64,000 bases of DNA, taken from contig JBAZSP010000001.1 of NCBI GenBank assembly GCA_041663285.1, positions 81,838-145,837 of the forward strand, given 5' to 3'. A program made the position numbers and the translations under genes. The first letter of the stretch is position 1. Each line of letters begins with the position of its first letter. This stretch comes from Candidatus Shapirobacteria bacterium (GTDB lineage: Bacteria; Patescibacteriota; Microgenomatia; UBA12405). Shown here in pieces: positions 1 to 29,825 of the stretch. The notes under the pieces were generated by a model, which was not told the origin of the DNA, searched no databases, and saw nothing but the letters and a program-made list of their open reading frames with translations.

Positions 1-243
1 CTCAATTACACTGACTGTGGCCGGTCTTTCAAGTATTGTTGTCTTCCCCCCGAGCCTACAATTATTCCGACGGCTATACCCACTACCATTCCTACAGTAG
101 CTCCCACCACGATACCTACGGTTATCCCAACCATCATCCCAACTGTTATACCTACCATTATTCCTACCCAAGTACCGACCAACACTCCAACACACTGGCC
201 AACACCAACCTGGTATTCCACCCTGCCTCAAACCAGTTACTAG
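1..243 (+). CDS. 3' fragment of a secreted/surface protein with a Cys-containing segment and a Pro/Thr-rich tail; partial, runs off the window start
   Basis: Frame 1 reads ...YTDCGRSFKYCCLPPEPTIIPTAIPTTIPTVAPTTIPTVIPT...LPQTSY and stops at TAG 241-243. The listed ORFs 36-272 (+) and 6-221 (-) are off-frame or antisense readings of the same PT-rich repeat. Confidence 0.5.
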   Translation, partial: LNYTDCGRSFKYCCLPPEPTIIPTAIPTTIPTVAPTTIPTVIPTIIPTVIPTIIPTQVPTNTPTHWPTPTWYSTLPQTSY

Positions 244-1075: not shown

Positions 1076-2479
1076 ATGATTGTGTCTTCAAAACCCAAGA
1101 CTGCCAAAAAAATAAGTAATCTTATTATTCTATCCTGCTCATTCTTCTTTTGTTACCTTATTTTCACTTTTTACTCTGCAAAATTTAATTTAAAGGCCTC
1201 AGAATATTTTGAATCTGCCTCCGATTTTGTGCAGTGGTGCAATGAGCACAACGATATTTGCCAAAAAACCGACGTTTCCGGCCGCACTGGCTCAGCCACT
1301 TGCCCCCTGTCGTCTCAAACAGTAGACAAGGTCTATGTTCATGCCGGCAGCGGTCAGGATATCTGGCTGCTTCCTGACGAAAAATTCACTTATACAATTT
1401 CTGGCAACACAGCTACTGTCACCGTTGTTACCGGCCATGACTTATCCTGGATTGCGGTTTATTGTGAAAATAGCTGCGATTGTCTTACTTGCCCTCCTTG
1501 TAACCCGACAATAACTCCCGCTCCCACATCAACCCCGACCGCCACCCCCTCTCCCACAATTACCCCAACAAAAATCAATACACCCACTCCTACGTCCATA
1601 TCATCACCTACCCCCACTCCAACTCAATTTAATTCCCCCACCCCGACCGCCACCTGTTCTCCTACTCCGACGCAAACTCCGATCAGTTCTCCGACTCCAA
1701 CCGCCATTTTGTCATTTACCCCGACTCCTTCACCAACATTCACACCCACTCCAACTCCAACCTCAACATTGAATCCTACCGAAACCCCGTCACCTAGTCC
1801 CACCAGTACTCCCGTCCCCGGTCCAACCGAAACTCCTGGGCCCGGTCCCACCGAAACTCCCGTCCCCGGTCCAACCAGCACTCCCGGTCCGGCCAACACT
1901 CCAACCCCTTTTGGCGTCGGTGGTGGTGAAGAATATAACCCACTGGTTGCCGGAGTTACCCGATCGACTACTACCGAAACAGCCGATAACTACAATCCCT
2001 TAATTGAAGGTATTCAGGATTCTTATATCGGTGAAGTTTTGGGTATGGCTTTTCCGGCCACTGCCGAAACCCAAAAAAGCTTAGCCAAACTTCCGTCAAA
2101 CAATTTATTACTTCCCGACCACTTCATAGTAATACCCAAAATAGGGTTAAATCGTCCGGTTTATCAAGGTGAAATCGTTGGCGGTCAATACCTGGCCGGC
2201 CACCAGGAAGTTATTACCTCGGTGATTAACGGCTCGCCGGTTTACTATGCCCACAGTTGGAACGCTGCCCTATTTGAAGGTATTTCCAGAATGGCAATAG
2301 GCGACTTTGTCTATGTTGACATTGCCGGTGCCGGTAAGGCTTATCAAGTTTCCGCTAAGTCGGTAGTTGCCGACACCGACTTAACCGCTATCCGTCCCTC
2401 AACTTCTGATACCATTTACCTTCTAACCTGTGTCGATGCCACTCACCGTTTATTATTCGAGGCAAAAAAATTACCTTAA
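1076..2479 (+). CDS. sortase-family transpeptidase domain protein with N-terminal TM anchor, Cys-rich domain and ~140-aa Pro/Thr-rich stalk
   Basis: N-terminal hydrophobic helix, a CxC/CxxC-rich segment, a PT-linker (TPTPTxT repeats), then a C-terminal region resembling the sortase fold: IPKIGLNRPVYQG, AGHQ, YYAHSW (His region), GDFVYVD, YLLTCVDATHRLLF (TLxTC Cys followed by Arg). Confidence 0.55.
   Translation: MIVSSKPKTAKKISNLIILSCSFFFCYLIFTFYSAKFNLKASEYFESASDFVQWCNEHNDICQKTDVSGRTGSATCPLSSQTVDKVYVHAGSGQDIWLLPDEKFTYTISGNTATVTVVTGHDLSWIAVYCENSCDCLTCPPCNPTITPAPTSTPTATPSPTITPTKINTPTPTSISSPTPTPTQFNSPTPTATCSPTPTQTPISSPTPTAILSFTPTPSPTFTPTPTPTSTLNPTETPSPSPTSTPVPGPTETPGPGPTETPVPGPTSTPGPANTPTPFGVGGGEEYNPLVAGVTRSTTTETADNYNPLIEGIQDSYIGEVLGMAFPATAETQKSLAKLPSNNLLLPDHFIVIPKIGLNRPVYQGEIVGGQYLAGHQEVITSVINGSPVYYAHSWNAALFEGISRMAIGDFVYVDIAGAGKAYQVSAKSVVADTDLTAIRPSTSDTIYLLTCVDATHRLLFEAKKLP
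1500..1915. repeat. low-complexity Pro/Thr codon repeat (PT linker) inside CDS 1076-2479
   Basis: Iterated cc(a/c/g)ac(t/c/g) units encode TPTPTxTPxP; the antisense strand gives the spurious GV-rich ORF 1624-1899. Confidence 0.8.
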
Positions 2480-2481
2480 CT

Positions 2482-3069
2482 ATGAAAAAGCAAAAAGCCG
2501 CCCCAAAGCTTGAAGTCCAGCCACGGCCAATATTCCCCAAAAAGATTATTGTGGCTATCATGATCATCGCGCTTTTCGCCCTTGCCTACAAATTTATTTC
2601 CATTATCCGCCAGCCCGCCTCTACCCAAAATTTACCTTCTCCCACTCCCGTCTTACTTTCAACCCCTTTGCCTCCCGGCTGGTCTATGGCTACACCTTCA
2701 GCCGGCAATACCCTAAAATTGGTCAAAGAAACCCAAGATAAAGTCAAACCTTCGATTGTCCTGATCACATCGGCCTACACTTCTGATCTTTCCGAAAGTA
2801 AATATGCCGACACTATTATCAAGGGTGCCCGTTCTGCCCTGCCCAGCCTCACCTTTACCATCAATCGATCCGAAAATGTTGGCTCTTTTTATGTCCGTCA
2901 CCTCCAGGGCACTTATATCAATGCTCGTAATCAGGTCCGGGTCAAACAGCGCTTATATATCCAAAACAAAACAGTCTCTACTCTAACAGCTTCATACCTA
3001 CCCCAAAACCTCGATGCCGAAATCGACACCATTTTTGATGCTATCTTTACTGACAAAATTAATCTGTAA
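2482..3069 (+). CDS. hypothetical membrane-anchored protein
   Basis: 195-aa ORF with a single N-terminal TM helix, lying directly downstream of the sortase-like gene. No recognisable motifs. Confidence 0.4.
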   Translation: MKKQKAAPKLEVQPRPIFPKKIIVAIMIIALFALAYKFISIIRQPASTQNLPSPTPVLLSTPLPPGWSMATPSAGNTLKLVKETQDKVKPSIVLITSAYTSDLSESKYADTIIKGARSALPSLTFTINRSENVGSFYVRHLQGTYINARNQVRVKQRLYIQNKTVSTLTASYLPQNLDAEIDTIFDAIFTDKINL

Positions 3070-14086: not shown

Positions 14087-15724
14087 ATGACCATTCAGGA
14101 CCGGATCAAACAAATTACTACCCAAAAGCAGAGCACCATTATTTCGGCGTCAATTGTATTGGGCTTGACATTCGGTCTTTCAGCCATATTAGGTTTTCTA
14201 CGAAGTCGCTTTCTTTACTCCCGGTTCTTTTCTTGTTGTGTCAGTCAGCTGGACGCCTATAACGCTGCTTTCCGTTTGCCCGACTTACTTTTTAAATTGC
14301 TGGTTACCGGAGCCTTATCGGCTTCGTTTATCCCGGTGTTTTCAAGCTACCTTCACCAGGACGAAAAACGAGCCAACAAGATGGCTTCGGTAATTATTAA
14401 CCTCTTGCTCTTGATTTTTATATCTGCCGGAGTATTAGCCTTAATCTTCACCCGACCGATTTCCGAGCTAATCGCCACCGGTTTTTCCCCCGCCCAAATC
14501 GACCTTATGGTCGGCTTAAGCCGGATACTTCTGATAGCCCAACTATTTTTCCTTATCAGTAATTTTATTACCGGAATACTTCAGGTTCACCAGGCCTTCC
14601 TTATACCGGCGTTTTCTCCCATAATTTACAATATCTTTATTATCCTTGGAATTTTTGCCCTTAGCCCGACCTTTGGTATTTATGGAGTGGCTTATGGTGT
14701 TGTTGTTGGCGCCTTTTTCCATTTGGCGATCCAAATACCGGTGGTCCGAAAATTCGGCTTTCACTATTCATTTACTCTTGACACCAAAAGCCATGGTGTC
14801 CGTGAAGTGTTCCGGTTAATGTTACCCCGAAGCTTATCGCTGGGCTTGGGCGAAATCGAAAACACCGTCACCCTCTTTTTTGCCAGCACCCTGGCCGTTG
14901 GTTCGATCTCTCTTTTAAACTTAGCTCTTCAATTAATTTTTTTACCCAGCCGGATTTTTGGTACCACCGTTGGCCAGGCCTCCCTGCCGATTCTTTCCAA
15001 AAACATTGCCCACAACGAGCTCGATCAGTTCAAATCCACTGTCGATAAAGCCATATTCCAAAGTCTTTTTATATCTCTGCCCGTCGGCATCTTAATGCTG
15101 GTTCTAAGGTTACCTATAGTTAGGATTGTCTTCGGCGCCAGGCAGTTTCCTTGGTCTGCTACTCTCCAAACTGCCAGGATTTTAGCCTTTTTGTTTCCGG
15201 TAATCGTCTGCCAGGCTGTCATCCAAATTTTGATCCGCTCGTTTTATGCCCTTCACAACACCAAGACACCTTTATATGTATCGGCTGTTTCTCTTACCGT
15301 CAACGTCCTGATTAATTTTTTATTAATTAATTTTACTTCACTCGGAGTTGTGGGTTTGGCCATCAGTACTTCTGTCGGTAATCTCATCCAGATGACTGGC
15401 TTGTTCTACCTCTTTTGCCAAATAGTTCCCAATTTTGTTGGTTATACCACTTTCCTGCGGGTTGGCAAAATATTTCTGGCCTCAGCCAGCCTTGGTCTCT
15501 CGTCTTGGCTTGCCCTAAGGCTCTTTGACTCCCCAACTTTGCTTGATACTTCCAAAACTGTCAATCTGATTTTCCTTTCGGCCATCTCCTTTATCATTGG
15601 AGGAGCCACCTACTTGTTTGTTTCCCGGCTTCTTCGGGTTAGCGAGCTGGAAGATTACAAAAACATTTGGCTTAAGTTCAAGGCCATAATTCGTAATTTT
15701 AAACTCGCCAAAGCTGTAGGCTAA
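14087..15724 (+). CDS. murJ: lipid II flippase MurJ (MviN)
   Basis: 545 aa, ~14 TM helices, and an N-terminal segment LGFLRSRFLYSRF...DAYNAAFRLPDLLFKLLVTGALSASFIPVFS characteristic of MurJ. Confidence 0.85.
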   Translation: MTIQDRIKQITTQKQSTIISASIVLGLTFGLSAILGFLRSRFLYSRFFSCCVSQLDAYNAAFRLPDLLFKLLVTGALSASFIPVFSSYLHQDEKRANKMASVIINLLLLIFISAGVLALIFTRPISELIATGFSPAQIDLMVGLSRILLIAQLFFLISNFITGILQVHQAFLIPAFSPIIYNIFIILGIFALSPTFGIYGVAYGVVVGAFFHLAIQIPVVRKFGFHYSFTLDTKSHGVREVFRLMLPRSLSLGLGEIENTVTLFFASTLAVGSISLLNLALQLIFLPSRIFGTTVGQASLPILSKNIAHNELDQFKSTVDKAIFQSLFISLPVGILMLVLRLPIVRIVFGARQFPWSATLQTARILAFLFPVIVCQAVIQILIRSFYALHNTKTPLYVSAVSLTVNVLINFLLINFTSLGVVGLAISTSVGNLIQMTGLFYLFCQIVPNFVGYTTFLRVGKIFLASASLGLSSWLALRLFDSPTLLDTSKTVNLIFLSAISFIIGGATYLFVSRLLRVSELEDYKNIWLKFKAIIRNFKLAKAVG

Positions 15725-15823
15725 GACCAGCATAGTAAAATATTTTTTTTGGCAACGGGAAACAGGTACTTAATATCCTCGACGGTTTATTTCCCAACTT
15801 CAGTCGTATATACTGATTTAGAT

Positions 15824-16393
15824 ATGCCTGCCAAAAAGGAAATTTCACTATTACCTGATTCCGAAAATGTTAATTCCTTTAGTTCCCGTCTACTCCGTTG
15901 GCTGACAACTGCCGGCCGGTTTGTCATCGTCTTTACCGAGTTAATTGTAATCTGCGCTTTTATCTCTCGCTTTTGGCTCGACCGCAAAAACTCCGATCTC
16001 TCCGAAATCCTACGCCAGCAGAAAGCTATTCTTGAAAGCACCCAAACTTTCGAAAAAGAATACGCTCTGCTCCAGCAGCGTCTAAAATTTATCAAAGGTT
16101 TTTACCAAAATCAGCCCAAATATTCTAAACAATTATATTCCTTAATTGAATCGACTCCTCCCGACATTGTTTTCCAAAAAATGGATCTGGCAGCCGATAC
16201 CAAAACCGGCAAAATTACGGCCAATGTTGACCTTGAAGCTTTTAAGGAAGAATCTTTGGTTGATTTTGTCACCAATCTGATGGTCAACCCCAACATCGAG
16301 AGCGTAGTGGTCAACACCATTACTAAAAAGCCCAAACAGAACAACTACCAAATCAAAGTTTCTCTTCTTTTTACCAATCAACCCAAAGGTTAA
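15824..16393 (+). CDS. PilN-like bitopic membrane protein (type IV pilus/type II secretion assembly component)
   Basis: The longest ORF starts at 15749, but the internal start at 15824 (MPAKKEISLLPD...) yields the PilN-type N-terminus with an INLLP-like motif (ISLLP). A single TM helix, a coiled-coil and a periplasmic domain follow. Confidence 0.35.
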   Translation: MPAKKEISLLPDSENVNSFSSRLLRWLTTAGRFVIVFTELIVICAFISRFWLDRKNSDLSEILRQQKAILESTQTFEKEYALLQQRLKFIKGFYQNQPKYSKQLYSLIESTPPDIVFQKMDLAADTKTGKITANVDLEAFKEESLVDFVTNLMVNPNIESVVVNTITKKPKQNNYQIKVSLLFTNQPKG

Positions 16394-17034
16394 TGCCAAT
16401 ATCTTCATTTTCCCAATCAAAGCCGCTCTACGAATTCCTCCGAAAACAGCAGGATAATGAAAAATTCAACCGCGGATTGGAAATCACCGGTACCTTTATT
16501 TTAATTTCTTTTTTTCTTTTCTTCGCCATCAAGCCTACCGCCTACACCATCTCATCTCTTTTGGGTGATATAAGGTCGAAAGAGGAATTAATAAAAAAAA
16601 TGAGGACCAAAATCAATACCGTTATTCAAGCCCAGGAATCCTTTTCCCTTATCCAGGGTAAGTACCGCCTGGTTGACTCCAGTCTGCCCGATTCTGCCAG
16701 GTTCAACCAAGCTTACACCCAAGTTACTGGTTCCCTTCAGTCATCCGGCTTAAATCAATCCAAAATCCCTTTTTCTCTTCCCCTAAATTCTTCTTATCCG
16801 GCTTCTTCCCATGTGTCGGTTTTCGCCTCCAATTTGGCACTGGACGCCAGTTTCTCACAAGCTGTAAATTTTATTAATAAACTCACCAACAATCGACGAC
16901 TAGTTGACATCAAGTCGATTTCTTTTTTCCGTCCCAGTATTGGATCAGGCACCGATTCATCTTCTGGTACCATTAAGGTCAATTTTGGGATAGAGTATTT
17001 ATATTGGGACTCAACATCAAATGAAAAAAAGTAA
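16393..17034 (+). CDS. PilO-like bitopic membrane protein
   Basis: Short cytoplasmic N-terminus, one TM, coiled-coil, periplasmic domain. Start overlaps the upstream stop (ATGA coupling). Confidence 0.3.
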   Translation: MPISSFSQSKPLYEFLRKQQDNEKFNRGLEITGTFILISFFLFFAIKPTAYTISSLLGDIRSKEELIKKMRTKINTVIQAQESFSLIQGKYRLVDSSLPDSARFNQAYTQVTGSLQSSGLNQSKIPFSLPLNSSYPASSHVSVFASNLALDASFSQAVNFINKLTNNRRLVDIKSISFFRPSIGSGTDSSSGTIKVNFGIEYLYWDSTSNEKK

Positions 17035-17269
17035 GCTTTCCAGCTATCTCATAACCTTTTCCGTTATCACCTTCCTTACTATCTTTTTTCTAATTGCCGA
17101 AAACAGCTATTCCAAAATGGTCGGTCCCATCAAGATTGCCCAGGCCAACAATTTAATGACTCCGGTCGATCCTAATCTCGACTCCGATGTTGTTCTCCAA
17201 ATTGAAAATCGGGACGAATTTGTTTCCGATGATCAGGTAGTCATATCTTCTTTACCCGCCAATGATTAA
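17021..17269 (+). CDS. small membrane protein (82 aa)
   Basis: Single N-terminal TM; translationally coupled within the 15.8-18.6 kb gene string. Confidence 0.25.
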   Translation: MKKSKLSSYLITFSVITFLTIFFLIAENSYSKMVGPIKIAQANNLMTPVDPNLDSDVVLQIENRDEFVSDDQVVISSLPAND

Positions 17270-18569
17270 AGAAATAAAGATTCCGACCATATTAGGCACT
17301 TTCCTGTTAATCTTTGGTCTGACCGGAGGACTATATTTGACCACTAACCCCACCGCCTTTGGCTCCAAAGCAAACGCTTCCTGCCAGCCCCAAAATCCCC
17401 AAGTTACAAACATTACTAACAATTCGTTTGATGTTTCTTTTTTAACCACATCCGCCTGTTCCTGCTCACTCCAGGTAGAAAATCTCCCCTACCTCGATGT
17501 CAAAGAAAACTCACCGGTTCATTATTTCCAAGTTACCAATCTCAAAGCTTCTACCCCCTATCAATATCAATTTATTTGTCAAGATGCCGTTTATCAAAAA
17601 TCCGAATATCAAATTACCACCGCCATTTCGCCTTCTACACCCTCTTCAACCTCAACTTTAGCTTGGGGTAAAGTTCTAGTTGCCTCACAGCAACCCGCTC
17701 CAAATTCGATTGTTTATCTTAACATCCCCGGAGCTTCACCTTTATCAGCCTTGGTTACTTCGGATGGCAATTGGGCCATCCCTCACGCCATCTCTTTTAA
17801 CGACCTAAGGACCGACTGGTTTAACCCTCCGGCCAATACCGCCGAGGATCTCATTATCATCTCCGCCGACGGGCCCCAAACCCAAATCCTGGGTAGCACC
17901 TCCTCGAATTCACCTGTACCGGATATCATTCTTGGCCAGGATCAGTTAAATCCGCAAGATCATCCCGTCGATTCTGCGCTGGGTGATTTACCTACCTCAT
18001 CGTCCCAGCCGATAACAACACTTGAGTTGACCAACCCCAAGGACGGTGAAGTAGTCCACACTAGTCAGCCGGAATTTTTTGGGAAAGCCCCGGAAAACTC
18101 TATTCTGCAAATAACTATAGAATCCGACCAGGTAATAAATGAACAACTTGCAGTTGGTCAGGACGGTCGTTGGTCATATGCTTCGCCAACCGGCCTCGCT
18201 CCCGGTGAACACACCATTATCATAAAAGTCCAAAATCCGGTCACTCAAATTTGGCAAACTATCACCCGCCGTTTTGTTGTTAATGCTCAGTCGGGTGGTG
18301 ACTCCCTGGCTTTTACCGCTTCAGCATCGGCCACCTTAGCTCCGACAGCTCTCCCTTCTCCAAGTCAACGTCCCACCCAGACCATCTCACCGACAATCTC
18401 TCAAATTACCCCCACCCACATACCGACGGTGGCACCTACCGTTATTATTGTCCAGCCTAGTGTTACCGGGCCACTGGAGAAAACCAGTAACGTTATTCCC
18501 ACCTCGCTGTTATTCTTTTTTGCCGCAGCGGCCTTTGTGTCCGGCTTGTTACTTATCAGGAAAAATTAA
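17262..18569 (+). CDS. cell-surface protein with N-terminal anchor, FN3-like domain and C-terminal motif-hydrophobic-basic tail
   Basis: N-terminal TM. The segment SFDVSFLTTSA...TNLKASTPYQYQF has an FN3-like pattern. C-terminus is ...PSVTGPLEKTSNVIPTSLLFFFAAAAFVSGLLLIRKN, i.e. a hydrophobic segment plus a positive tail like a sorting signal. Confidence 0.45.
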   Translation: MIKEIKIPTILGTFLLIFGLTGGLYLTTNPTAFGSKANASCQPQNPQVTNITNNSFDVSFLTTSACSCSLQVENLPYLDVKENSPVHYFQVTNLKASTPYQYQFICQDAVYQKSEYQITTAISPSTPSSTSTLAWGKVLVASQQPAPNSIVYLNIPGASPLSALVTSDGNWAIPHAISFNDLRTDWFNPPANTAEDLIIISADGPQTQILGSTSSNSPVPDIILGQDQLNPQDHPVDSALGDLPTSSSQPITTLELTNPKDGEVVHTSQPEFFGKAPENSILQITIESDQVINEQLAVGQDGRWSYASPTGLAPGEHTIIIKVQNPVTQIWQTITRRFVVNAQSGGDSLAFTASASATLAPTALPSPSQRPTQTISPTISQITPTHIPTVAPTVIIVQPSVTGPLEKTSNVIPTSLLFFFAAAAFVSGLLLIRKN

Positions 18570-18622: not shown

Positions 18623-20578
18623 ATGATCAACTTAGGTAACGGAAAAAAGTATTATCCACTATTTACTGTACTATTTTTACTGTTATCTTTGGTTGGAGCC
18701 ATTGCCTTAGTCAAGACTTCCCAGGAAACCCGCAACAAAGCTGCCGGTCCTGCCGGCCAGTTAATCTGCCGTCGTGATAGTAACACCTCAATTACTTTAA
18801 TCAACAACACCGGCCGCGATATTCCTTACGAGATCCTTGAATTTAGAGGTTGCGACTGTAATGTCTCCCAATGTCTCACCGGTCGGACTAAATATATGCA
18901 GCCAACTGTTAGAAACGGTGAAACCAAAACCGAGTCAATGTCTCCGGCCAGGTGCGAAGCAGCTCAACTCGATATCAAAAGTCTGGTTACCGAATTTCCT
19001 TGTATCGACCCAAACACTGGAAGAAGCTGGGATGGTGGCACCGCCTTCGCCATTGACCGTGACTGTAGCATCTGTAATAATCCCACCCCCACCACCTCCT
19101 TGCCCACAGTATCCTGTAATGGCATCACCGTCACCAATGGTTCCGGCCAAGACATGAGCTCTTCTTCTGCAGAAGACCTGAAATTAGCTTTTCCGGGCGA
19201 GACTCTAAACATATCGTCAAGCTTTAGTCCAAATGGCTTACTTTTTTTTGCCAGGGTAAATGCTTATGCTACCAGAATCGATCTTCCTGCTAACCGGGTT
19301 GGTGATCTTTTCACTTTTCCGGCCAACAAGGTACCTGCATCCAATTCCGCCTCCGGCACAATTACCCTTCCCACCCAGCCTGGCACCTATTACTACAGCC
19401 TGGCTGCAAACGCCTATGAGAGTTCATCCTGCCGCTATCTTTGCGCCACCGATGGTAATTTCCGCCAAAACGGTGCCGGCACCGGTAGTTGTGATACATC
19501 AACTCAAGGCTGGCCTTCCGTCGGTCGTTGTACTAGTAATGGTTGTACCAAAAACTTAGCCATAAAAGTTATTCCCCAAAACTTATCCTGCACCAACTTA
19601 TCGATCACTAATTCCCAAGGTGTCAGTATCAGCTCCAGCAGCGCCGGTGACGTTAAAATCGTTAATCCAGGTGAGCGGTTAAATATTTCCACCAGTTTTT
19701 CCTCTTACGGTTTAGTCTATTATGCTCAGATGAAGAGTTTCGACGGTAATATTGCCGTCCAACCGGACAGAACCACCGGAATATTTACCAATATTCCTCA
19801 AAACGGCGTTCCTGCCTCCAGTAGCCCCATGTCGGATGGTTTTAACGCACCTGCTCAAGCCGGTACCTACATCTATCATTTCGCCACCAATGTTTTCGAT
19901 GATCCTCAATGTCAAATTCTATGTTCGGTCGATAGTAACCTCCGGCGTAATCCCTACGGTAGCGGTCATTGCAACGATCAGGCAACATCTCCCGCCTGGC
20001 CAATCATTAAACAATCCGGTTGTACCAGCGGTTGTCTTAAAAAATTAGTTATCCAGGTTAAAGAAACTTCTCCTTCTCCTTCTCCAACTCCCACTCCGAC
20101 TTCTACTTCTACTCCTTCTCCAACACCGACTACCACTCCCAGAAACACGCCGACTATCACCCCCACCCGGACGCCAACCCCAACTCCGACTACCCGCTTG
20201 ACGCCAACCCAAACCCCCACCGGAACCCTGAGACCTACCCAAACCCCCACTAACACCCCGGTTTCTTCGCCTACTCCAACCACTCCGGCTGAGTTAGTCT
20301 GTCAGTACTTGAAAGTCTACGACCAGAACTGGTCAGAGATTACCGACTTATCTACCTTAAAGCTTAATCAAAGGGTCTATTTTGCTACCAAAGAAACAGG
20401 AACCACCACTGCTACGCGGGCCAGGTTTAAGATTACTGTTAACGGTAATGCGTCTGACTGGCAAGAAACCTCCAGCAAAAATAGTCAGGGCGAACTCTAT
20501 ATTTCCTACACCATCAATCAGTCAGGTAGTTATGAAATCCAAGCCCAGGTATACCTGGAAGGCGTTGGACGGAGATAA
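18623..20578 (+). CDS. large secreted protein: N-terminal anchor, two tandem ~150-aa Cys-containing repeat domains, PT-linker, C-terminal domain
   Basis: N-terminus LLSLVGAIALVKTSQETRNKAAG. The internal repeat NGITVTNGSGQD...CTKNLAIKVIPQ parallels NLSITNSQGVSI...CLKKLVIQVKE. A PT-rich linker spans 20060-20290. Confidence 0.5.
   Translation: MINLGNGKKYYPLFTVLFLLLSLVGAIALVKTSQETRNKAAGPAGQLICRRDSNTSITLINNTGRDIPYEILEFRGCDCNVSQCLTGRTKYMQPTVRNGETKTESMSPARCEAAQLDIKSLVTEFPCIDPNTGRSWDGGTAFAIDRDCSICNNPTPTTSLPTVSCNGITVTNGSGQDMSSSSAEDLKLAFPGETLNISSSFSPNGLLFFARVNAYATRIDLPANRVGDLFTFPANKVPASNSASGTITLPTQPGTYYYSLAANAYESSSCRYLCATDGNFRQNGAGTGSCDTSTQGWPSVGRCTSNGCTKNLAIKVIPQNLSCTNLSITNSQGVSISSSSAGDVKIVNPGERLNISTSFSSYGLVYYAQMKSFDGNIAVQPDRTTGIFTNIPQNGVPASSSPMSDGFNAPAQAGTYIYHFATNVFDDPQCQILCSVDSNLRRNPYGSGHCNDQATSPAWPIIKQSGCTSGCLKKLVIQVKETSPSPSPTPTPTSTSTPSPTPTTTPRNTPTITPTRTPTPTPTTRLTPTQTPTGTLRPTQTPTNTPVSSPTPTTPAELVCQYLKVYDQNWSEITDLSTLKLNQRVYFATKETGTTTATRARFKITVNGNASDWQETSSKNSQGELYISYTINQSGSYEIQAQVYLEGVGRR
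20060..20290. repeat. Pro/Thr codon repeat (PT linker) inside CDS 18623-20578
   Basis: Encodes SPSPSPTPTPTSTSTPSPTPTTTP...; the antisense strand gives spurious ORFs 19978-20283 and 20045-20242. Confidence 0.8.
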
Positions 20579-20581
20579 AAT

Positions 20582-22072
20582 ATGTTTCAAGACACACTAA
20601 AAAATAATCTGAAAATTATCGCTATCGCAGTGTCTTTGCTGACTTTAGTTGGCGCCGTCGCTTTAGTAAAAAGAAGACAGGAATTGCGCCGAAGTGCCGC
20701 CGAAGAAGTAGTCAATACTTTCCGCAGTAAGCCCAACGACGGCCTATGGAAAAAAGTCAGCTATGATGCCTATGTCCAAAACGAGCCAGCTGGGTGTCAA
20801 GGTGTTTCCGCTTCACTCTGTCAGCCAAAACCATATCCGTCTGCCGGTAATTGGAATCAGTCGTCATATTCCGATACTGGTTGGCAAAGCGGTTACAGTG
20901 TCGATAGCTCTTGGTGGCAAGGTCAGGATTGGGCTTGCTCACGCAACTTTATTCAATCAGGAAGTCAGATAATTGGGCCGGTTGCTCCATCGAATGGTCT
21001 CTTTCCCAATATAAACGACACTACCGGCTTATACCGCCGAAAGTTTACCTTGCCCCAAGGTGTTGATATCGTTCGGGCTAACATCAAATTATTCAGCGAC
21101 AACAAGGTCATAGTCTACATTAATGGTAATCTGGTCAATAGTTCTTACAACGAACTTTGCTACGAATATTCCATTAATCCCAACTTCCTTCAGTCCGGCC
21201 AGAATATCTTAGCCATCCAGCTTTCCAACGATGCTGTTAACCAGGCCGATAATCCGCTGGGGGTTGCTTACGAGTTAAATGTCGTTACCTCCTCCGAACC
21301 TCCGATAGTAGTCCCCACCAATACTCCGATCCCCACTGTCACCTCTACCCCCTCCCCGGTTCCCACCTATAGTCCCTGTGTTATTAGATTCGATGTTTTG
21401 GTTACGCCCACTCCAACACTGACACCGACAAATACCCCAACCGGCTCGCCCTCACCCACCCCCACCAAAACTCCGACTCCAACCATCACGCCGACTCCCA
21501 CCAACACGCCCACCGGTACCCTAACCCCAACTCTTTCTCCCACCAATACTCCTACGAACACCCCAACTTCAACCCCAACTCCGACGCGTACTCCAACCCC
21601 CACCAACACGCCAACACCTACTAATACGCCCCGGCCCACTAATACCCCGGTTTTAAGTTCCACCCCCACCCCCACTTTTACCCCATCTCCGACTGGCACA
21701 CTTAGACCTACCAACACCTTAGTTCCCACTAACACCCTCCGGCCTACCAATACATTGATTCCTACCAGTACACCTCGGCCCACCTCAACTCCGGTACTTC
21801 GCTGTGGTTCTACTTGCGGCGACTCCATTGGTGGTCAATGTCCGGCCGATCATACCTGCTATCAAAACACCTGTGTTCTTAATGCTTGCCTAGAAGGTGT
21901 TCCTTGTGACGCCAGCCAGTGTGTTACTTTAAAGCCAACCAAAACCCCGACCCCAATCGTCGCCTCTCCCACCCGGATTACCCTGCCTGATGCTGGCTTT
22001 GACTTCCCCGTAAAGGCAATTGCCATTGTCGGCATCATCGTCACCCTCTTCGGTTTCCTGATTTTGTTGTAA
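20582..22072 (+). CDS. large secreted protein paralogous at the N-terminus to 18623-20578, with ~170-aa PT-linker, Cys-rich module and C-terminal LPDAG + hydrophobic anchor
   Basis: N-terminus [24 protein letters not shown] matches the LLxLVGAxALVK..QE.R..AA of the upstream protein. PT linker spans 21290-21800. Then [41 protein letters not shown]-terminus is [31 protein letters not shown]. Confidence 0.5.
21290..21800. repeat. Pro/Thr codon repeat (PT linker) inside CDS 20582-22072
   Basis: TPTxTPT units repeated over ~170 codons; the antisense strand gives spurious ORF 21367-21828. Confidence 0.8.
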
Positions 22073-22080
22073 ACTTACCT

Positions 22081-23004
22081 GTGACAAAAAATAACGGGTT
22101 CTTATCCTTGCTTGAAGCTTTGCGCCCTAGTCAGTGGATTAAAAATTTAAGTATCTTTTCGGCTGCCTTGCTAAACGGGCAGTTATTCGACACCGATATT
22201 TTTGTCAAAAGTGCTTTCGGCTTCGTCGCCTTCTGCCTATTGTCCTCGTCTTCCTATCTTATAAACGATCTCCAGGATATCGACAAAGACCGTCTCCACC
22301 CGTCAAAGAAGAACCGCCCACTGGCCAGGGGAGATGTTTCCAAATTTTCCGCCATCGCGACCTCAGTAGCTCTTTTTATTTCTGGCTTGTCAATGGCCTC
22401 ATTGGTCAACTCCGCCTTTTTACAACTTTCTTTTGTTTTTATTATCCTGCAATACAGTTACTCATTCCTCTTCAAGAAGAAAGCAATTATAGACATCATC
22501 GGCATTGCCCTGTTTTTCATAATCCGTGCATATGCCGGCGAAATTGCATCCGGCTATCACCTTCCGGTCTGGATAATGCTTACCGTCATATTCTTGTCGT
22601 TATTTATTGCCTCCGGTAAACGTCGTACCGAACTTTATGTTACCGGCAGAAAGGCCAGGTCAGCCATGAAAGGCTATGGTAAGGCATTGCTTAATTTTTA
22701 CACCACTATGTTTGCCGTTTCTACCCTAATTACGTACGCCATGTTTACCTTTCTGGAAGAGCCGGTTAGGTTTCAGGGCATAATTCACCATTTTTTACTG
22801 GAAAATTTTCCTTCTGCTATCGACCGCAAGTGGTACATGATAACCCTGTTACCGGTCATATTTGGCATTATGCGTTACGGTCAAATCATCTTCGAAATGC
22901 AGGAAGGGGAGAAGCCCGAAAGAATAATTACCACCGACATCCCTTTAATATTTTCAATTGCTCTTTGGGGCTTAATGATAATTACAGTTATCTATGTCCT
23001 CTAG
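22081..23004 (+). CDS. UbiA-family prenyltransferase, decaprenyl-phosphate phosphoribosyltransferase (DPPR synthase)-like
   Basis: ~8 TM helices, the Asp-rich motif NDLQDIDKDRLHPSKKNRPLARG (NDxxDxxxD) and N-terminus QWIKNLSIF as in the Rv3806c-type enzymes. Confidence 0.65.
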   Translation: MTKNNGFLSLLEALRPSQWIKNLSIFSAALLNGQLFDTDIFVKSAFGFVAFCLLSSSSYLINDLQDIDKDRLHPSKKNRPLARGDVSKFSAIATSVALFISGLSMASLVNSAFLQLSFVFIILQYSYSFLFKKKAIIDIIGIALFFIIRAYAGEIASGYHLPVWIMLTVIFLSLFIASGKRRTELYVTGRKARSAMKGYGKALLNFYTTMFAVSTLITYAMFTFLEEPVRFQGIIHHFLLENFPSAIDRKWYMITLLPVIFGIMRYGQIIFEMQEGEKPERIITTDIPLIFSIALWGLMIITVIYVL

Positions 23005-24574
23005 GGTTTGGCTGGCTCGGTCCTTCGCCGTTTTTCTTTTCCTTCTTGTTCTTCTGACGAGATTTGTAAAAGTCGACTGGGGAGATGGCTATTTTTTCCA
23101 TCCGGACGAAAACAATATGGCCCAGGCAGTCTCCCGGATGTCACCCGATGATCTGGACCCCCGGTTTTACGCATATGGCCAACTCCCTTTGTTTTTGTCC
23201 TACTTTTCTTTAAGGTTGGTCGGTTTGTCCAATAGTTTTGAAAATGCCGTTATCAGTCTAAGGTTGTGGTCTGGCCTTTTTTCTTCCATATCCGTGCTAT
23301 TTATTTACCTTATTGCTCAAAAACTTTTTCCTCCCCGAATCGCCCTGGCTTGTTTTGCTTTCTCCATTTTCTCTCCCGGTTTAATTCAGTCGGCTCATTT
23401 TGGAACCACCGAGTCAATCCTTCTTTTTGTTTTTGCTGCTAATTTATTTCTAAGTCTCAACTTTGTCTCAACCGGTAATCTGGCTCTATTATTAGTAGCG
23501 GCTATTATTAGCGGATTTGGCCTGGCAACCAAGGTTACTGCCCTCATTCTCATGGGCCCTGTTTACTTGGCCATTCTGGTGCACCTATTCCGGACAAAAA
23601 AAATTCTGCTAAGCTTGCTAACACTTCTACTCTTTACCTTACTTGCTTTGGTTATTTTTATTTTAGCCTCGCCCTTTAACTTAATTTCCCGCGCAGATTT
23701 TTTATCAACTTTAAAATACGAAGCATCGGTTGCCACCGGCACGTCCCCGGTGTTTTATACCCGTCAGTTTATCGGAACCTTGCCTTATATTTTTCAGCTG
23801 CTTCGGGTGTTTCCTTATGCCTTAGGCATCCCGCTTTGTTTGGCAGCCGCAATTGGCTGGTTTTTATCGTTAGTTCCATCAGTCGGCAAACACAAAACAT
23901 TTTGGTTTATTATTATTTTTTCGTCCCTAGCTTACTTTGTTTATAACGGTCAACTTTATACTAAGTGGACCCGTTTTATGGCGCCTCTATTTATTTTGGC
24001 TCCTCTATTTGCTGCCAACTTTATAAAAGCTTTTCCTGCGTCATCAAAAGTCAAAGCCTCTCTTTTGGTTCTTTGTCTGATTCCCGGCTGGCTTTTTTTA
24101 ACCATTTATTTTCAAAAAGACATTCGGGTTACTGCCTCCGAATGGCTGATTACTAACATAAAGTCCGGATCCACCGTTCTGTCTGAAGCCGGAAATGTCG
24201 TGAATCTTCCGGTTGGCGATCATCAGTTGATTGTCGTAAATTTTGATTTCTACGGTCTCGACGCCAGCCCTACTCTTCAACAGGAGCTGCCCAACCACCT
24301 TTATTCAGCTGATTATCTTTTGGTGCCCTCCCGCCGTATTTTTAAAAATCAATCCAGTCCCAGTTTTCCCTATAGTCAACGTTACTATCAAAAATTATTT
24401 TCCGGCGAGCTTGGGTTCTTACCGGTCAAAGTTTTTTCAAACCCTCTGGCCACACTGCTTGATACCGAAAATGCCGAAGAGACTTTTTCGGTGTTTGATC
24501 ATCCCAAAATCCGTCTTTATAAAAAAATAACCCCTAAATCCCAAGGTGAATACCAGAGTTTATTAACTCCTTAA
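22994..24574 (+). CDS. GT-C fold membrane glycosyltransferase (GT39/PMT/ArnT-like)
   Basis: 526 aa polytopic, first extracytoplasmic loop with the HPDE motif (FFHPDENNMAQAV), large C-terminal soluble domain. Confidence 0.6.
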   Translation: MSSRVWLARSFAVFLFLLVLLTRFVKVDWGDGYFFHPDENNMAQAVSRMSPDDLDPRFYAYGQLPLFLSYFSLRLVGLSNSFENAVISLRLWSGLFSSISVLFIYLIAQKLFPPRIALACFAFSIFSPGLIQSAHFGTTESILLFVFAANLFLSLNFVSTGNLALLLVAAIISGFGLATKVTALILMGPVYLAILVHLFRTKKILLSLLTLLLFTLLALVIFILASPFNLISRADFLSTLKYEASVATGTSPVFYTRQFIGTLPYIFQLLRVFPYALGIPLCLAAAIGWFLSLVPSVGKHKTFWFIIIFSSLAYFVYNGQLYTKWTRFMAPLFILAPLFAANFIKAFPASSKVKASLLVLCLIPGWLFLTIYFQKDIRVTASEWLITNIKSGSTVLSEAGNVVNLPVGDHQLIVVNFDFYGLDASPTLQQELPNHLYSADYLLVPSRRIFKNQSSPSFPYSQRYYQKLFSGELGFLPVKVFSNPLATLLDTENAEETFSVFDHPKIRLYKKITPKSQGEYQSLLTP

Positions 24575-24581
24575 TACCCTT

Positions 24582-26297
24582 ATGGCCAGACTACCCACCC
24601 GTTTCCACTATCTGCCCGTGTTAGTAGTTATTCTTTTACTGGGTTTCTTTTTCCGGTTTTACGGTCTTAATTGGGATCAAAGTCAGCATCTTCACCCAGA
24701 CGAAAGATTTTTAACCATGGTTGTTACCGCCATGAAATTACCCATCAACATTACGGAATATTTTGATCCGCAGCTTAGTTTACTCAATCCCTACAATCTT
24801 AATTTTAGCTTTTTTGTCTACGGCACTTTGCCCCTGGTTATAACCAAAATTATCGGCCAACTTCTAAATTACACCGAATACTGGAACGTATTTTTAGTCG
24901 GCCGGGTTTTGTCGGCTGTTCTTGATCTGGGTGTAGTTATTCTTATATACCGGATCTCCAAAACTATTTCGGGCCCAAAAGCAGCCCTGGGCGCCGCTTT
25001 TATCTATTCGGTTATGGTATTGCCCATTCAGCTGTCCCATTTTTTCGCCGTTGACACCTTTGTCAATTTTTTTGTTGTACTCACTCTTTTTCTAACTTTA
25101 AAATATCTTCCGAAACACCCCTTCCGCGGCTCACTTCTGGCTGGGGGGGCCTTCGCCCTTGCTCTAGCCTGCAAAATATCCGCCCTCTACTTTAGTCCGG
25201 TTATTGCGTTCTTGTTTGTATACAGCTTTCTCGTCTTCACTCCCAAGCTGTTGGCAAAAATCGTCAATCTGATAGTCTATGGCCTCTTATTTTTATTTAG
25301 TTGTTTCTTTATTTTCAGGCTAATTCAGCCACATTTGTTCCAAACTCAAAACATTTTTAGTTTTTCTCTTGAACCCCGCTTTATCAGCAATCTTAAAGAG
25401 CTAACCTCTTACTCCGATAAAAATAGTTGGTACCCCCCTGGCATCCAGTGGAAAACTACCCGCCCTCTTTTATTCCCCTTAACCAATCTGGCTTTGTGGG
25501 GACTTGGCGTTCCTCTTTTTCTTGTAACCTGTTTGGGTTTAATTCTGCAGTTCTGGGGTATCAAAAAGAATATAAAAAAACTATTTTGTTGCCCTTCCCT
25601 TTTTACTATAGCGGTCTTGTCTCTTTGGCTGGTTGCTTTCTTTTTATATCAAGGCAGCCAACACGTCAAAACCATGCGTTACTTTCTTATCCTTTACCCC
25701 ATACTGGCTATTTTGGCCGGAGAAGCTTTTGCCCGCCTTCTGGCTTTTTTTGTCAGAAAATCAACACTGCTGGCTGTCTTTTTCATCTTTGCCTTTCTTG
25801 CCTATCCTCTTTCTTTTATGTCCATTTATACTCACCAAATTACCCGGGTTGCTGCTTCCGAATGGATCTATCGTCATATTCCTTCCGGTTCAACCTTGAC
25901 TTATGAGCTCTGGGACGATCCTCTGCCTCTTTCCCTGCCCGGATACCCGGTTAATCAATATCAGCTTTTGGAGCTAAAAATGTTTGACAAAGATAGTCCG
26001 GAAAAGTGGCAGGATCTTTCTAAAAAATTATCCCAGGTCGATTATTTAGTTATGTCGTCCAACCGTTTGCACGGCACTATTCCGAAACATCCCGAATATT
26101 ATCCCCAGTCATCCGTCTTTTACCAGAGTTTGCTCGCCAATACCCACCCCGATTTTAAAAAAATTGCCGAGTTTACCTCCCGGCCTTGCTTTCCTCCAGT
26201 TGGTTCTCCTCTATTTTGCCTGGTCGACGACTTTGCCGAAGAAGCCTTCACTGTCTACGACCACCCTAAAGTACTGATCTATCAAAAAACATTATAG
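24582..26297 (+). CDS. GT-C fold membrane glycosyltransferase (GT39/PMT/ArnT-like), paralogue of 22994-24574
   Basis: 571 aa polytopic, loop-1 motif HLHPDERFLTMVV, C-terminal domain similar to the preceding gene (…FTVYDHPKVLIYQK vs …FSVFDHPKIRLYKK). Confidence 0.65.
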   Translation: MARLPTRFHYLPVLVVILLLGFFFRFYGLNWDQSQHLHPDERFLTMVVTAMKLPINITEYFDPQLSLLNPYNLNFSFFVYGTLPLVITKIIGQLLNYTEYWNVFLVGRVLSAVLDLGVVILIYRISKTISGPKAALGAAFIYSVMVLPIQLSHFFAVDTFVNFFVVLTLFLTLKYLPKHPFRGSLLAGGAFALALACKISALYFSPVIAFLFVYSFLVFTPKLLAKIVNLIVYGLLFLFSCFFIFRLIQPHLFQTQNIFSFSLEPRFISNLKELTSYSDKNSWYPPGIQWKTTRPLLFPLTNLALWGLGVPLFLVTCLGLILQFWGIKKNIKKLFCCPSLFTIAVLSLWLVAFFLYQGSQHVKTMRYFLILYPILAILAGEAFARLLAFFVRKSTLLAVFFIFAFLAYPLSFMSIYTHQITRVAASEWIYRHIPSGSTLTYELWDDPLPLSLPGYPVNQYQLLELKMFDKDSPEKWQDLSKKLSQVDYLVMSSNRLHGTIPKHPEYYPQSSVFYQSLLANTHPDFKKIAEFTSRPCFPPVGSPLFCLVDDFAEEAFTVYDHPKVLIYQKTL

Positions 26298-26300
26298 ACC

Positions 26301-27908
26301 ATGCCCAAGCTATTTCACCTAAGCGCCGCTTTTCTTTTTTTCTACTCTTCCCTTGGCCTTTTTTGGGCCCCTTTGTCGCCATTGCTGGCCAAAACACTTA
26401 TCGTCTCTTGGATGTTGATTTTTGTTTGGCTGCTGGCTTTTGGTATCTACCTTGAAATTCAGAATTTACGACAAAAAAAATATCCCATATATACCGCCAT
26501 TAGTCTCTTTATAACCTTTGCCATAATTTTATCCAATATTGCCAACGGCAAATATCTTTATGGCGAAATAGCCCAGGAAACTACTTGTTTATTTAATCAC
26601 CTCAGTGCTTCATCGGATCTTGGATTCAACCAAACTTGTCTTTTTGGTTATCCGGCCCGGCAGTTTATATTTTCCTCACTGCCATCCTTTTTTGGCCGGT
26701 CACTTTTTTTATTGAACGTTGGCCCATTCCTTTATTTTATAATCGGCCTTACCCTTTTTATCGCCGGTATTAGGTATTTTATTGATGATTCTCGAACCGG
26801 CGATCTCCTAACAGCATTGTTTATTTGGCTTTTACCCCATTCACCTCACTTTTTTCATCTTGTTTTTAGCTTTGAGCAGGCTCTCTTTCCCCTTTGTTTT
26901 ACTCTCGCCCTGTTAGGCTTGTTTTTTGCCTTCCAAAAAGCCAAAGACGTCTTTCCATTATTCGGCTTTGGCCAGGTTATCCTTCTTTTAACTTATTCCT
27001 ACACCCCCTCCTTGTCTGTCGTTCTTTTGTCTTTCGTGGCCTTATTTTATTTTTTGTTTCTCTATCGTCACCAGTTTAAGATAACCATCTCGCTATCACT
27101 TATAATCATCTTTTGCGCTATTAATCTCCTTAGCTCAGTGACCCTTCGTCAGGACCTTAACAGGCAGAATTCAAGCGCAAACCCTTCGGTATTATCGGCC
27201 AGCCTAACCGTCTTATCTCATGTTTTTTTTCAAAGCCAGGGAAAAAACTTTGTTGATCCCCAGATTCAAGCCTGGTTTATCCTGGCCACCGCCGCTCCGT
27301 TGCTTTTGGTTTATGGCTTCCGTCATTTTGTCATTTCTTTGTGGGTCGTTGCTACTATTTTACTTTCCGCTTTATCTCCTGGCTACGCCTCACCTCCCAT
27401 CGATTTTGCTCTACATCGGGCGATTATAATTATCCCTGTACTCTACGCCCAAAATCTAATAGCGCTAATTCATAGAAAAACTATCTGCCAGATTCTTCCG
27501 TTGCTTCAACTTTTGTTACTCCTTTTAGCTGTCAGCGGGGTGTCCAAATACTTGTCCTATACCCAAGGCCAGTCGATTTCTCCATATTATTCCGTCATTA
27601 CCTGGTTGGCCGAGAAAAATATTATTGTACCCAAAACTCCGGCTACCGTTTATTTTGCTTCGGGTATCAATTCCGGCATTACTTCGCTTCGTGACTTTAT
27701 GCCCTATTTTTATCCCAACGTTTCCACTCATAGTCTCGATCATCAATTTTGTCAGTTAAGTCAAACTATTCCTCCCGGCATCTACATATTCCCGTCAGAT
27801 TTTTCCTGTGGGTTACTCAACGACTCTCCCGCTTTTCGCCAGGAGCAGTATCTTGAACCTTCCACTCACCAAGTTTATTTAATAAAAAATATTAGCCAGG
27901 TTTTCTAA
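26301..27908 (+). CDS. polytopic membrane protein, probable additional GT-C-type glycosyltransferase
   Basis: 535 aa with more than 10 TM helices, translationally adjacent in the same gene string. No diagnostic motif recognised. Confidence 0.4.
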   Translation: MPKLFHLSAAFLFFYSSLGLFWAPLSPLLAKTLIVSWMLIFVWLLAFGIYLEIQNLRQKKYPIYTAISLFITFAIILSNIANGKYLYGEIAQETTCLFNHLSASSDLGFNQTCLFGYPARQFIFSSLPSFFGRSLFLLNVGPFLYFIIGLTLFIAGIRYFIDDSRTGDLLTALFIWLLPHSPHFFHLVFSFEQALFPLCFTLALLGLFFAFQKAKDVFPLFGFGQVILLLTYSYTPSLSVVLLSFVALFYFLFLYRHQFKITISLSLIIIFCAINLLSSVTLRQDLNRQNSSANPSVLSASLTVLSHVFFQSQGKNFVDPQIQAWFILATAAPLLLVYGFRHFVISLWVVATILLSALSPGYASPPIDFALHRAIIIIPVLYAQNLIALIHRKTICQILPLLQLLLLLLAVSGVSKYLSYTQGQSISPYYSVITWLAEKNIIVPKTPATVYFASGINSGITSLRDFMPYFYPNVSTHSLDHQFCQLSQTIPPGIYIFPSDFSCGLLNDSPAFRQEQYLEPSTHQVYLIKNISQVF

Positions 27909-29824: not shown

Positions 29825-29825
29825 A

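Follow-up and report, generated by a model that had tools for sequence, protein, structure and literature searches.

The window analysed here is a stretch of 64,000 nucleotides from a genome of Candidatus Shapirobacteria (Patescibacteria, Microgenomates; assembly GCA_041663285.1, contig JBAZSP010000001.1, positions 81,838 to 145,837 of the forward strand), and close to its left end the plus strand encodes a sortase of 467 amino acids (aa) in an open reading frame (ORF) running from ATG to stop at 1076-2479. As read from the family alignment, the sortases of this clade carry a 10-13-residue copy, or a close variant, of the sorting signal of their group's surface proteins, and it lies at a fixed position ahead of the catalytic domain. 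As to its function, the favoured interpretation is that of a pseudo-substrate lid on a class C-like sortase, to which the sequence comparisons and the structural model together give about an even chance. The sortase annotation itself is not new, since sortases have already been reported as near-ubiquitous in Microgenomates, where they are one of the few near-universal envelope functions (PMC6744442), and the protein is 100% identical over its full length to the public entry 'MAG: sortase [Candidatus Shapirobacteria bacterium]' (MAG, metagenome-assembled genome). A preliminary description of the gene had recognised the sortase and overlooked the internal motif, the N-terminal domain shared with substrates and the conserved downstream gene. 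No description of such a composite sortase was found in the searchable literature.

Between the linker and the catalytic barrel the protein reads DNYNPLIEGIQDSYIGEVLGMAFPATAETQKSLAKLPSNN (aa 304-343), which corresponds to a family module of the form NYNPLxxGI...G(E/Q)(V/I)LG-x-[L/F][P/A]xT[G/A]. The module consists of a pre-catalytic helix motif, NYNPLIEGIQDSY (aa 305-317, 1988-2026, +), the internal sorting-signal mimic GEVLGMAFPATAE (aa 319-331, 2030-2068, +) with the pentapeptide F326-P327-A328-T329-A330, and an LP(S/T)(G/N)N turn (LPSNN, aa 339-343, 2090-2104, +) lying directly before strand beta1. The layout in the AlphaFold2 (AF2) model is a helix at aa 308-316, then the motif-bearing loop and then beta1 from aa 344. 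Conservation was counted in 61 related clusters whose representatives are at or below 50% identity. The helix is marked by N307 (56/61), P308 (52/61) and G312 (49/61), and the turn by its Leu (50/61), P340 (58/61) and N343 (54/61). Within the mimic itself the upstream VLG is kept at L322 in 53 and at G323 in 56 of the 61 clusters, the P4 column (F326) holds L in 39, F in 5 and M in 5, the P3 column (P327) holds P in 35 and A in 12, P1 (T329) is Thr in 57, and P1' (A330) is G in 27 and A in 24 (51/61 together). The remaining variation at P1' includes S, D or H in 9/61, for example FPATD in the close homologue P0003.

Of the 61 members, 30 contain the strict pattern [VI]LG-x(2-6)-[LFYMIWV][PA]xT[GA], against 0.02 in composition-preserving shuffles; it is also found in 3/85 more distant sortases, those three looking like unrecognised members of the family. 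The position of the motif is also constrained: the spacing from its Thr to the catalytic Cys is fixed at 114-124 residues, and T329 stands 15-21 residues ahead of beta1. Many members show pentapeptides of canonical type (LPKTG, LPDTG, LPYTG, LAKTG, LAQTG), and one large subclade reads ELMATAE, without Pro, where the window protein reads FPATAE. Minimal members of about 215 aa (P0155, P0124), which have no passenger domain at their N-terminus, retain the motif, and on a rough neighbour-joining (NJ) tree the type of motif tracks the catalytic clade rather than the passenger. As a separate observation, the helix motif occurs twice in the window protein, as EEYNPLVAGV (aa 285-294, 1928-1957, a partial first copy) and as DNYNPLIEGI (aa 304-313, 1985-2014); an upstream NPxVxG(I/V)...VLG element is present in many relatives, and the pre-catalytic module may be an internal duplication.

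The likeness to a sorting signal comes from proteins that are not sortases. The N-terminal domain of the window protein, at 42-51% identity and with the same four Cys, also heads the non-sortase proteins P0006, P0007, P0009, P0010, P0012 and P0014, in which it is followed by a Pro/Thr (PT) linker, then GEVLG-xxx-[Y/F/L]AxTG, a hydrophobic stretch and a Lys-rich tail. The signals read VLGATSYAKTG in P0006, P0007 and P0009, VLGANTLAATG in P0010 and VLGITTFAPTG in P0012, each with the hydrophobic stretch and the basic tail. In addition, unrelated Patescibacteria surface proteins bear the extended signal (VLGVVTQLPDTG in P0044 and VLGKSTAKGLPATG in P0065), again with a hydrophobic stretch and a basic tail after each. 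Two criteria mark these ends as sorting signals, the three-part shape and the nearness of sortase genes, three of the listed signal-bearing proteins being encoded beside one; in the substrate-type proteins the curated LPXTG-anchor models missed the C-terminal signals. The internal motif appears to lie within the range of pentapeptides that sortases are known to recognise (L-P/A-x-T-G/A; compare LPXTG and the class E LAXTG) and shares with the real C-terminal signals the clade-specific upstream VLG. Unlike canonical signals, it precedes a catalytic domain instead of a membrane helix and charged tail: GEVLGMAFPATAE is not trailed by a hydrophobic helix and basic residues, and ETQKSLAKLPSNN and then the sortase barrel follow instead.

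The catalytic domain is a sortase beta-barrel at aa 344-467 (2105-2479, +), supported by Pfam, conservation, AF2, Foldseek and hhalign. Pfam Sortase (PF04203) aligns with aa 351-464 over profile positions 1-123 of 125 and scores 41.4 bits (gathering cutoff 26.6, E 1.4e-10), and the same family is matched by 45 of 46 family members. The catalytic residues found by alignment, His393 (2252-2254), Cys452 (2429-2431) and Arg458 (2447-2449), all on the plus strand, are each kept in 61/61 clusters, and their surroundings (YxHN, LxTC, F400, Y423) are strongly conserved; the TLxTC-type string quoted in the preliminary description, YLLTCVDATHRLLF, is aa 448-461 and does contain Cys452 (as LLTC) and Arg458. 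The AF2 model of aa 283-467 has a predicted local distance difference test score (pLDDT) of 85.3 and a predicted TM-score (pTM) of 0.80, with pLDDT above 86 across the barrel and eight strands predicted. Foldseek against the PDB gave 124 matches at E<=1e-3, of which the top 50 listed are all sortases. The sortase call of the preliminary description is thus borne out by a hidden Markov model (HMM) match above the cutoff, an invariant His-Cys-Arg triad and a predicted barrel resembling solved sortases; what it had named as grounds for giving the call up, a missing HMM match or a missing barrel or triad, was looked for and did not occur. An assembly or frameshift artefact was also considered for the ORF and is ruled out by the same architecture in independent assemblies (P0002, P0003 and about 50 clusters).

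The preliminary description had suggested assigning the enzyme to one of the classes A to F. No class resulted, all NCBIfam class models scoring below their cutoffs, although sequence and fold searches put class C first. With Foldseek, class C sortases lead (E about 1e-8), ahead of class E and class A; class C also ranked first in the PDB sequence search (4g1j, E 1e-7), and hhalign of the family profile with 4g1j gave 97.4% probability with the barrel alone aligned. The NCBIfam class C model NF033745 scores 41.6 bits, below its cutoff of 160; class D (18.6 against 165), SrtD (20.8 against 140) and GN (12.5 against 158) are likewise below cutoff, classes A, B, E and F were not listed at E<=1, and the generic TIGR01076 reaches 33.4 bits against 39.35. 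Furthermore, the DP(F/W/Y) lid anchor of class C was not found, its position being taken by F-P-A-T-A here and by L-[P/A]-x-T-[G/A] in the family consensus. There is no C-terminal transmembrane (TM) helix, only 9 residues following Arg458 here and at most 18 in the family, and neither pilus context nor nearby pilin genes were found at the window locus or at related loci. Because the anchor, the C-terminal TM helix and the pilus context are all missing and no class cutoff is reached, the enzyme is class C-like but stands outside class C. It is best explained, from its sequence and its modelled fold, as an active cysteine transpeptidase of a Microgenomates/Patescibacteria-specific sortase clade that is closest to class C. 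The scores under every curated class cutoff and under TIGR01076 might also suit a sortase-like domain that is degenerate or catalytically inactive and has been retained for a structural or binding role, but the invariance of His, Cys and Arg in all 61 clusters, the strong conservation of the neighbouring motifs and the confident barrel model make this hardly credible.

The internal motif can be compared with class C (pilin-polymerising) sortases, the closest matches by sequence and fold being SrtC1 of S. agalactiae (4g1j, 3rbi), SrtA of C. diphtheriae (5k9a) and SrtC1 of L. rhamnosus (7cg9). The window protein shares with them the eight-strand barrel, the His-Cys-Arg triad and an N-terminal helix and loop before beta1, which is where the lid sits, and in pairwise alignment the lid proline falls on the proline of the window motif. 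In the phmmer alignment with S. agalactiae SrtC1 (4g1j), FPATAE stands opposite the lid sequence DPYSAE with a posterior of about 0.8. The class C lid DP(Y/F) overlaps bound LPAT, with the prolines superposed (PMC3493515). Unlike class C, the clade has L[P/A]xT[G/A] and the upstream VLG in place of the DP(F/W/Y) anchor, no C-terminal TM helix in any member, housekeeping synteny with no pilin genes nearby, and its own N-terminal passengers and PT linkers.

A working scheme can be drawn from these likenesses. The sortase would be exported by an N-terminal Sec signal, and its N-terminal half appears to be built like a sorted surface protein, with a small, presumably disulfide-bonded beta-sandwich followed by a 137-aa Pro/Thr linker. 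The GEVLGMAFPATAE loop may occupy the substrate groove of its own enzyme, like the DP(F/W/Y) lid of class C sortases, and may block Cys452 until a true substrate pushes it aside. The substrate would be kept at the membrane by a C-terminal helix located after its VLG...xxTG signal. Cleavage by Cys452 would fall behind the Thr, and an amine of lipid II or peptidoglycan would probably resolve the acyl-enzyme. A gene for MurJ is present in the window. The DcrB/LpqN-like membrane protein encoded downstream is a probable working partner, and possibly a membrane tether.

Several points weigh against a lid. Docking of the loop in the groove is putative: the lid segment is modelled by AF2 at pLDDT 66-80 only, Foldseek alignments that include the N-terminal extension have root-mean-square deviations of 8-10 A, and the profile-profile alignment to a class C sortase spans the barrel and not the lid; the equivalence of the two lids is an argument from pairwise alignment and topology. 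The residues that anchor the lid in class C (Asp to Arg, and the aromatic over Cys) are absent. T-G stands at the scissile position in 27/61 clusters, many with a fully canonical LPxTG (LPKTG, LPDTG, LPYTG); if such a sequence sat in the groove of a competent sortase, cleavage would be expected, and an engineered target-LPXTG-linker-sortase does cut its own motif (PMC9985607). Finally, if the signal peptide is cleaved, the enzyme would be left with no anchor of its own, which would be odd for a housekeeping sortase.

The main rival reading is self-anchoring, in which, after export and signal cleavage, Cys452 would attack T329-A330 of its own chain or of a neighbouring copy, so that the N-terminal domain and PT linker would be moved to peptidoglycan or another protein and the catalytic domain released. 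The N-terminal half is collinear with sorted proteins (the A|S junction, the four-Cys domain at 42-51% identity, the PT linker and VLG...xxT[G/A]), the family passengers are typical surface modules (fn3 in 13/46, TSP1, Cys-rich) apparently swapped between catalytic clades, the N-termini look like cleavable signal peptides, no member has a C-terminal TM helix, and many of the 27 T-G members hold a full LPxTG. The distance of 15-21 residues from T329 to beta1 is within the range of engineered fusions, in which target-LPXTG-(7-19 aa linker)-SrtA 'autocyclases' form the thioester intramolecularly (PMC9985607). Against this, the relaxed P1' (Asp, His or Ser in 9/61) and the large ELMATAE subclade without Pro favour a mimic over a scissile site, and the window protein itself holds FPATA, not xxTG. 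The passenger-less P0155 and P0124 keep the motif where cleavage has no obvious use, which favours a regulatory part of the enzyme, and the fact that motif type follows the catalytic clade and not the passenger favours a lid over a scissile site. In addition, there is one gene per locus in a housekeeping synteny, which is enzyme-like rather than cargo-like, and the process would be costly, with one enzyme molecule spent per anchored protein. Self-anchoring is therefore rather unlikely, though it is the strongest of the rivals. About as doubtful, or slightly more so, is its extension to the whole clade, which would then consist of natural 'self-sorting' surface proteins with cargo, sorting signal and sortase on one chain.

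Cleavage of the motif could also occur in trans, the protein being a substrate of a second, short and lid-less type of sortase that cuts FPAT|A. Such sortases exist in the same organisms: in three independent loci a passenger-domain protein ending in VLG...xAxTG-TM-KK is paired with an overlapping gene for a sortase of 176-203 aa. The two-gene cassettes, in which the 3' end of the substrate-type gene overlaps the short sortase gene, lie at L008/L009 (10001-11369 in L008), L012 (1177-2755) and L013 (3903-5226). The short sortases have the same Pfam family and the same association with the four-Cys domain as the window sortase, but they carry a very basic N-terminus, read as a signal anchor, and no helix/VLG/LPxTG module; they are 30-36% identical mutually and 20-23% identical to the window catalytic domain, so they form a second Microgenomates clade of their own, with class D as a sub-threshold best match. 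Processing in trans is nevertheless very improbable, for the 64-kb window holds no second sortase, the internal motif is without the hydrophobic stretch and basic tail that keep normal substrates at the membrane, and the type of motif goes with the catalytic clade to which it is attached rather than with the passenger. The simple idea that the window gene is a fusion of a substrate gene with the short sortase of such a cassette was likewise rejected, as the catalytic clades are different.

Two engineered systems come closest to the arrangement of the window protein, the autocyclases already mentioned (PMC9985607) and self-cleaving sortase purification tags (PMC2901362), which also place a cargo, a pentapeptide, a short segment and the barrel in this order. 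The short, flexible segment is 15-21 residues in the window protein, against a 7-19-residue linker plus the disordered SrtA N-terminus in the engineered fusions. Those fusions are artificial and use the class A SrtA with a perfect LPXTG, whereas the motif of the clade, a putative substrate, is often imperfect (FPATA here).

The N-terminal half bears on all of these readings. The export signal (aa 1-41, 1076-1198, +), defined by hydropathy and family comparison, has a basic n-region (KPKTAKK), a hydrophobic core at aa 16-35 and then an NLKA|SE junction. The N-terminal TM helix of the preliminary description accordingly stands as a single hydrophobic segment, but its stable insertion was an assumption, since the segment resembles a cleavable signal peptide equally well. 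In 46 family members the median core length is 15 residues, followed by small-x-small sites, and in 8 substrate-type proteins it is 16.5, so the two groups are not separable by this crude measure; the window protein has a core of 20 residues, the longest in the family, followed by LKA|SE. The Ala at -1 of the junction is invariant in alignment A1, substrate-type proteins included. From its sequence, the segment may stay in place as a signal anchor or be removed as a Sec signal peptide, and in the second case the sortase would be left with no membrane anchor of its own.

The passenger domain (aa 42-131, 1199-1468, +), delimited by alignment A1 and AF2, consists of one helix and a seven-strand beta-sandwich, modelled at pLDDT 90.2 and pTM 0.80. 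In alignment A1 (9 sequences, 42-63% identity) the cysteines C55, C62, C76 and C130 do not vary, nor does Lys64. Pfam and PDB sequence searches with the domain gave no match, and a fold search gave none at E<1e-3 in the PDB or BFVD; weak matches recur to terminal domains of phage tailspikes and tail fibres. Its known spread rests on 9 + 2 proteins, as the alignment A1 search added only four short fragments. Conserved Lys residues in pilins are nucleophiles for sortase-mediated polymerisation; the invariant lysine of the C-x-K motif (Lys64, 1262-1267), present in all 9 aligned sequences, could be purely structural.

Across the 46 family members the passengers include fn3 (13/46), TSP1 (in 2), DUF4215 (in 1) and many unassigned Cys-rich modules, and they form at least 13 similarity groups. 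The sortases with the window's passenger domain (P0001-3, P0122, P0163) occupy three separate places on the catalytic-domain tree (NJ, without support values), and this scatter suggests that passengers have been exchanged upstream of the internal motif. Recombination between a real sorting signal and the mimic would yield the observed architecture. At the boundary of domain and linker lies a Cys cluster, CDCLTCPPC (aa 134-142, 1475-1501, +). The preliminary description had spoken of a Cys-rich domain of about 100 aa with multiple CxC/CxxC motifs; a domain is present, at roughly 90 aa, but these motifs all fall in the one 9-residue stretch C134-C142. The closest homologues P0002 and P0003 lack the cluster and read VVCGQ(V/I)(S/T)PTP, so it is lineage-specific, and a metal-binding or redox role considered for it was dropped since the cluster is not conserved.

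The Pro/Thr-rich linker (aa 143-279, 1502-1912, +), found from composition and Tandem Repeats Finder (TRF), measures 137 residues, close to the 140 or so estimated before, and is composed of T (31%), P (31%) and S (12%); TRF found within it a 24-nucleotide tandem repeat of about 4.3 copies (1774-1876). The preliminary description saw in it an unusually long stalk, but the architecture is the rule in the Microgenomates clade. The lengths of 50 full-length-looking members run from 201 to 626 aa, with a median of 408 aa; 43 of them have a PT tract of 40 aa or more, 18 one of 100 aa or more and 4 one of 150 aa or more, and most members pair the tract with a variable passenger domain ahead of it. 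The tract of the window protein is among the longer ones, and its total length is unexceptional. Elsewhere in the window, long PT tracts are also seen in two large secreted proteins of 651 and 496 aa, encoded side by side at 18623-22072 (+), and such linkers are thus a general feature of this genome's surface proteins.

The model built on that stalk, a TM anchor bearing a rigid, O-glycosylated Cys/PT stalk that would carry protein sorting onto a distal envelope layer, with GT-C/PMT-like genes doing the glycosylation, is improbable. A tract of 137 residues could span roughly 40 nm if fully extended (at about 0.3 nm per residue), the 20-residue core makes an uncleaved anchor possible, and PMT_2/PMT-type GT-C ORFs do exist at 22994-26297. 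As a clade norm, however, the architecture is no special adaptation, and distance is not obviously useful when substrates are cut beside the membrane, where their C-terminal helix holds them. Sorting onto a distal layer is not supported, and the resemblance of the family N-termini to cleavable signal peptides makes the anchor-plus-stalk geometry that it needs doubtful. The GT-C neighbours (a decaprenyl-phosphate phosphoribosyltransferase-like gene, GT4) point to an envelope-glycan pathway, and the conserved internal motif and the substrate-shared passengers are left unexplained.

The two GT-C ORFs, 22994-24574 and 24582-26297, about 20 kb downstream of the sortase, match PMT_2 with 37.4 and 38.4 bits against a cutoff of 26.1, and the first also matches PMT (28.3 against 22.7); the claim of such genes was correct, and their tie to the sortase is circumstantial. 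PMT_2 is a broad GT-C family, and NCBIfam gave no family assignment for either ORF. They belong to an envelope-glycan cluster at 22081-32658 (mixed strands), which comprises a UbiA-family gene (202.6 bits to the decaprenyl-phosphate phosphoribosyltransferase model, just under its cutoff of 207), three polytopic GT-C-like ORFs, of which the third (26301-27908) has no family match, a predicted methyltransferase-like ORF (27892-28746, -), a GT4 gene (-), a small ORF that is HAD-like by eye (29826-30368, -) and, after the minus-strand genes, a DUF2298 membrane protein. Its gene content suggests a polyprenyl-phosphate-sugar pathway for an envelope glycan, which would fit at least as well as protein O-mannosylation. 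O-glycosylation of PT linkers in general is plausible. The cluster also resembles the polyprenyl-phospho-pentose pathways of Actinobacteria.

The sortase locus is a housekeeping locus and not a pilus island. The partner gene (2482-3069, +) starts 3 nucleotides past the sortase stop and encodes a 195-aa protein with an N-terminal TM helix and a DcrB/LpqN-like domain. Its family signal is weak (Pfam Lpp-LpqN 16.6 bits, below the cutoff; profile match to the LpqN structure 6e5f, E 0.03), but a homologue lies directly downstream of the sortase in 8/8 related loci reaching that far, and this holds even for P0008, which at 31% identity is among the family's most distant members. The partner probably works with the sortase, possibly as its membrane tether. 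The window's gene order methyltransferase, sortase, DcrB-like protein, superoxide dismutase (SOD), unassigned ORF and SdpI is kept in L002 and L005. A locus scan of GTDB with a 10-sequence alignment gave 7 loci. Two loci labelled 'uncultured Gammaproteobacteria' (L001, CAZIHS010000017.1; L003, CAZFAI010000035.1) share the Shapirobacteria synteny of sortase, DcrB-like gene and SOD, and their taxonomy labels are probably wrong.

Bacteria of the candidate phyla radiation (CPR) are thought to live attached to other cells, so the fixation of proteins at their surface is central to CPR biology. The syntenic sortase, probably the housekeeping one of its clade, is not a plain class A-like enzyme but a composite of a surface-protein-like front, a copied extended signal and a class C-like barrel, with a conserved membrane partner. 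Should the motif prove to be a lid, it would be the most substrate-like pseudo-substrate known in sortases and would suggest that the DP(F/W/Y) lid of class C stems from an internalised sorting signal. If it is cut, the protein would be, as far as we know, the first natural fusion of a sortase with its substrate, a mechanism that to our knowledge has been known so far only from protein engineering. A self-cut would couple an adhesin-like cargo covalently to the wall or to another subunit while releasing or activating the enzyme, and a reaction running between copies would amount to a pilin bringing its own polymerase. Either way, an extended recognition signal, (V/I)LG-x(2-6)-[L/F/Y][P/A]xTG, is defined, which can be used for predicting the surface proteome of an uncultured group and for finding sortases of new ligation specificity.

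As for substrates, almost none are encoded next to the clade's sortases in the related loci. In the window, which holds one sortase and one copy of the passenger domain, no ORF has the full VLG...xxTG-TM-basic signal, and no sorting-signal protein lies within about 14 kb of the sortase gene. Weaker candidates are an ORF at 17262-18569 (+), ending in VQPSVTGPLEKTSNV, a hydrophobic stretch and IRKN, and one at 20582-22072 (+, 496 aa), ending in RITLPDAG and a hydrophobic tail that lacks basic residues. The sortases P0155 and P0158 likewise have LPDAG and LPNAG as their internal motifs. A PT/PI-rich coding sequence at 1-243 (+) is truncated by the window's left edge and terminates in PTPTWYSTLPQTSY*, with LPQTS two residues before the stop and without a hydrophobic tail; the methyltransferase gene (240-1004, -) is convergent with it.

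The plus-strand stretch 14087-18569 encodes MurJ (lipid II flippase, 264.8 bits), a PilN-like ORF (20.2 bits, below the cutoff of 22.8), a 213-aa ORF without family match and, at its end, a 435-aa Big_13/fn3 protein with a C-terminal helix, an RKN tail and PSVTG upstream, which may be either type IV pilus-associated or a sorted surface protein. The rest of the window is ordinary chromosome (MetAP, FolD, TatD, MetRS, MurJ, UvrD-type helicases, DnaK, PNPase), and tRNA and Rfam searches of the window gave no match. Nearly all long ORFs of the window are on the plus strand, and the guanine-cytosine skew is negative in 29/32 2-kb bins over the 64 kb (cumulative -4.5), becoming weaker after about 48 kb; a published Microgenomates genome has been noted for such a strand composition disparity (PMC7143001).

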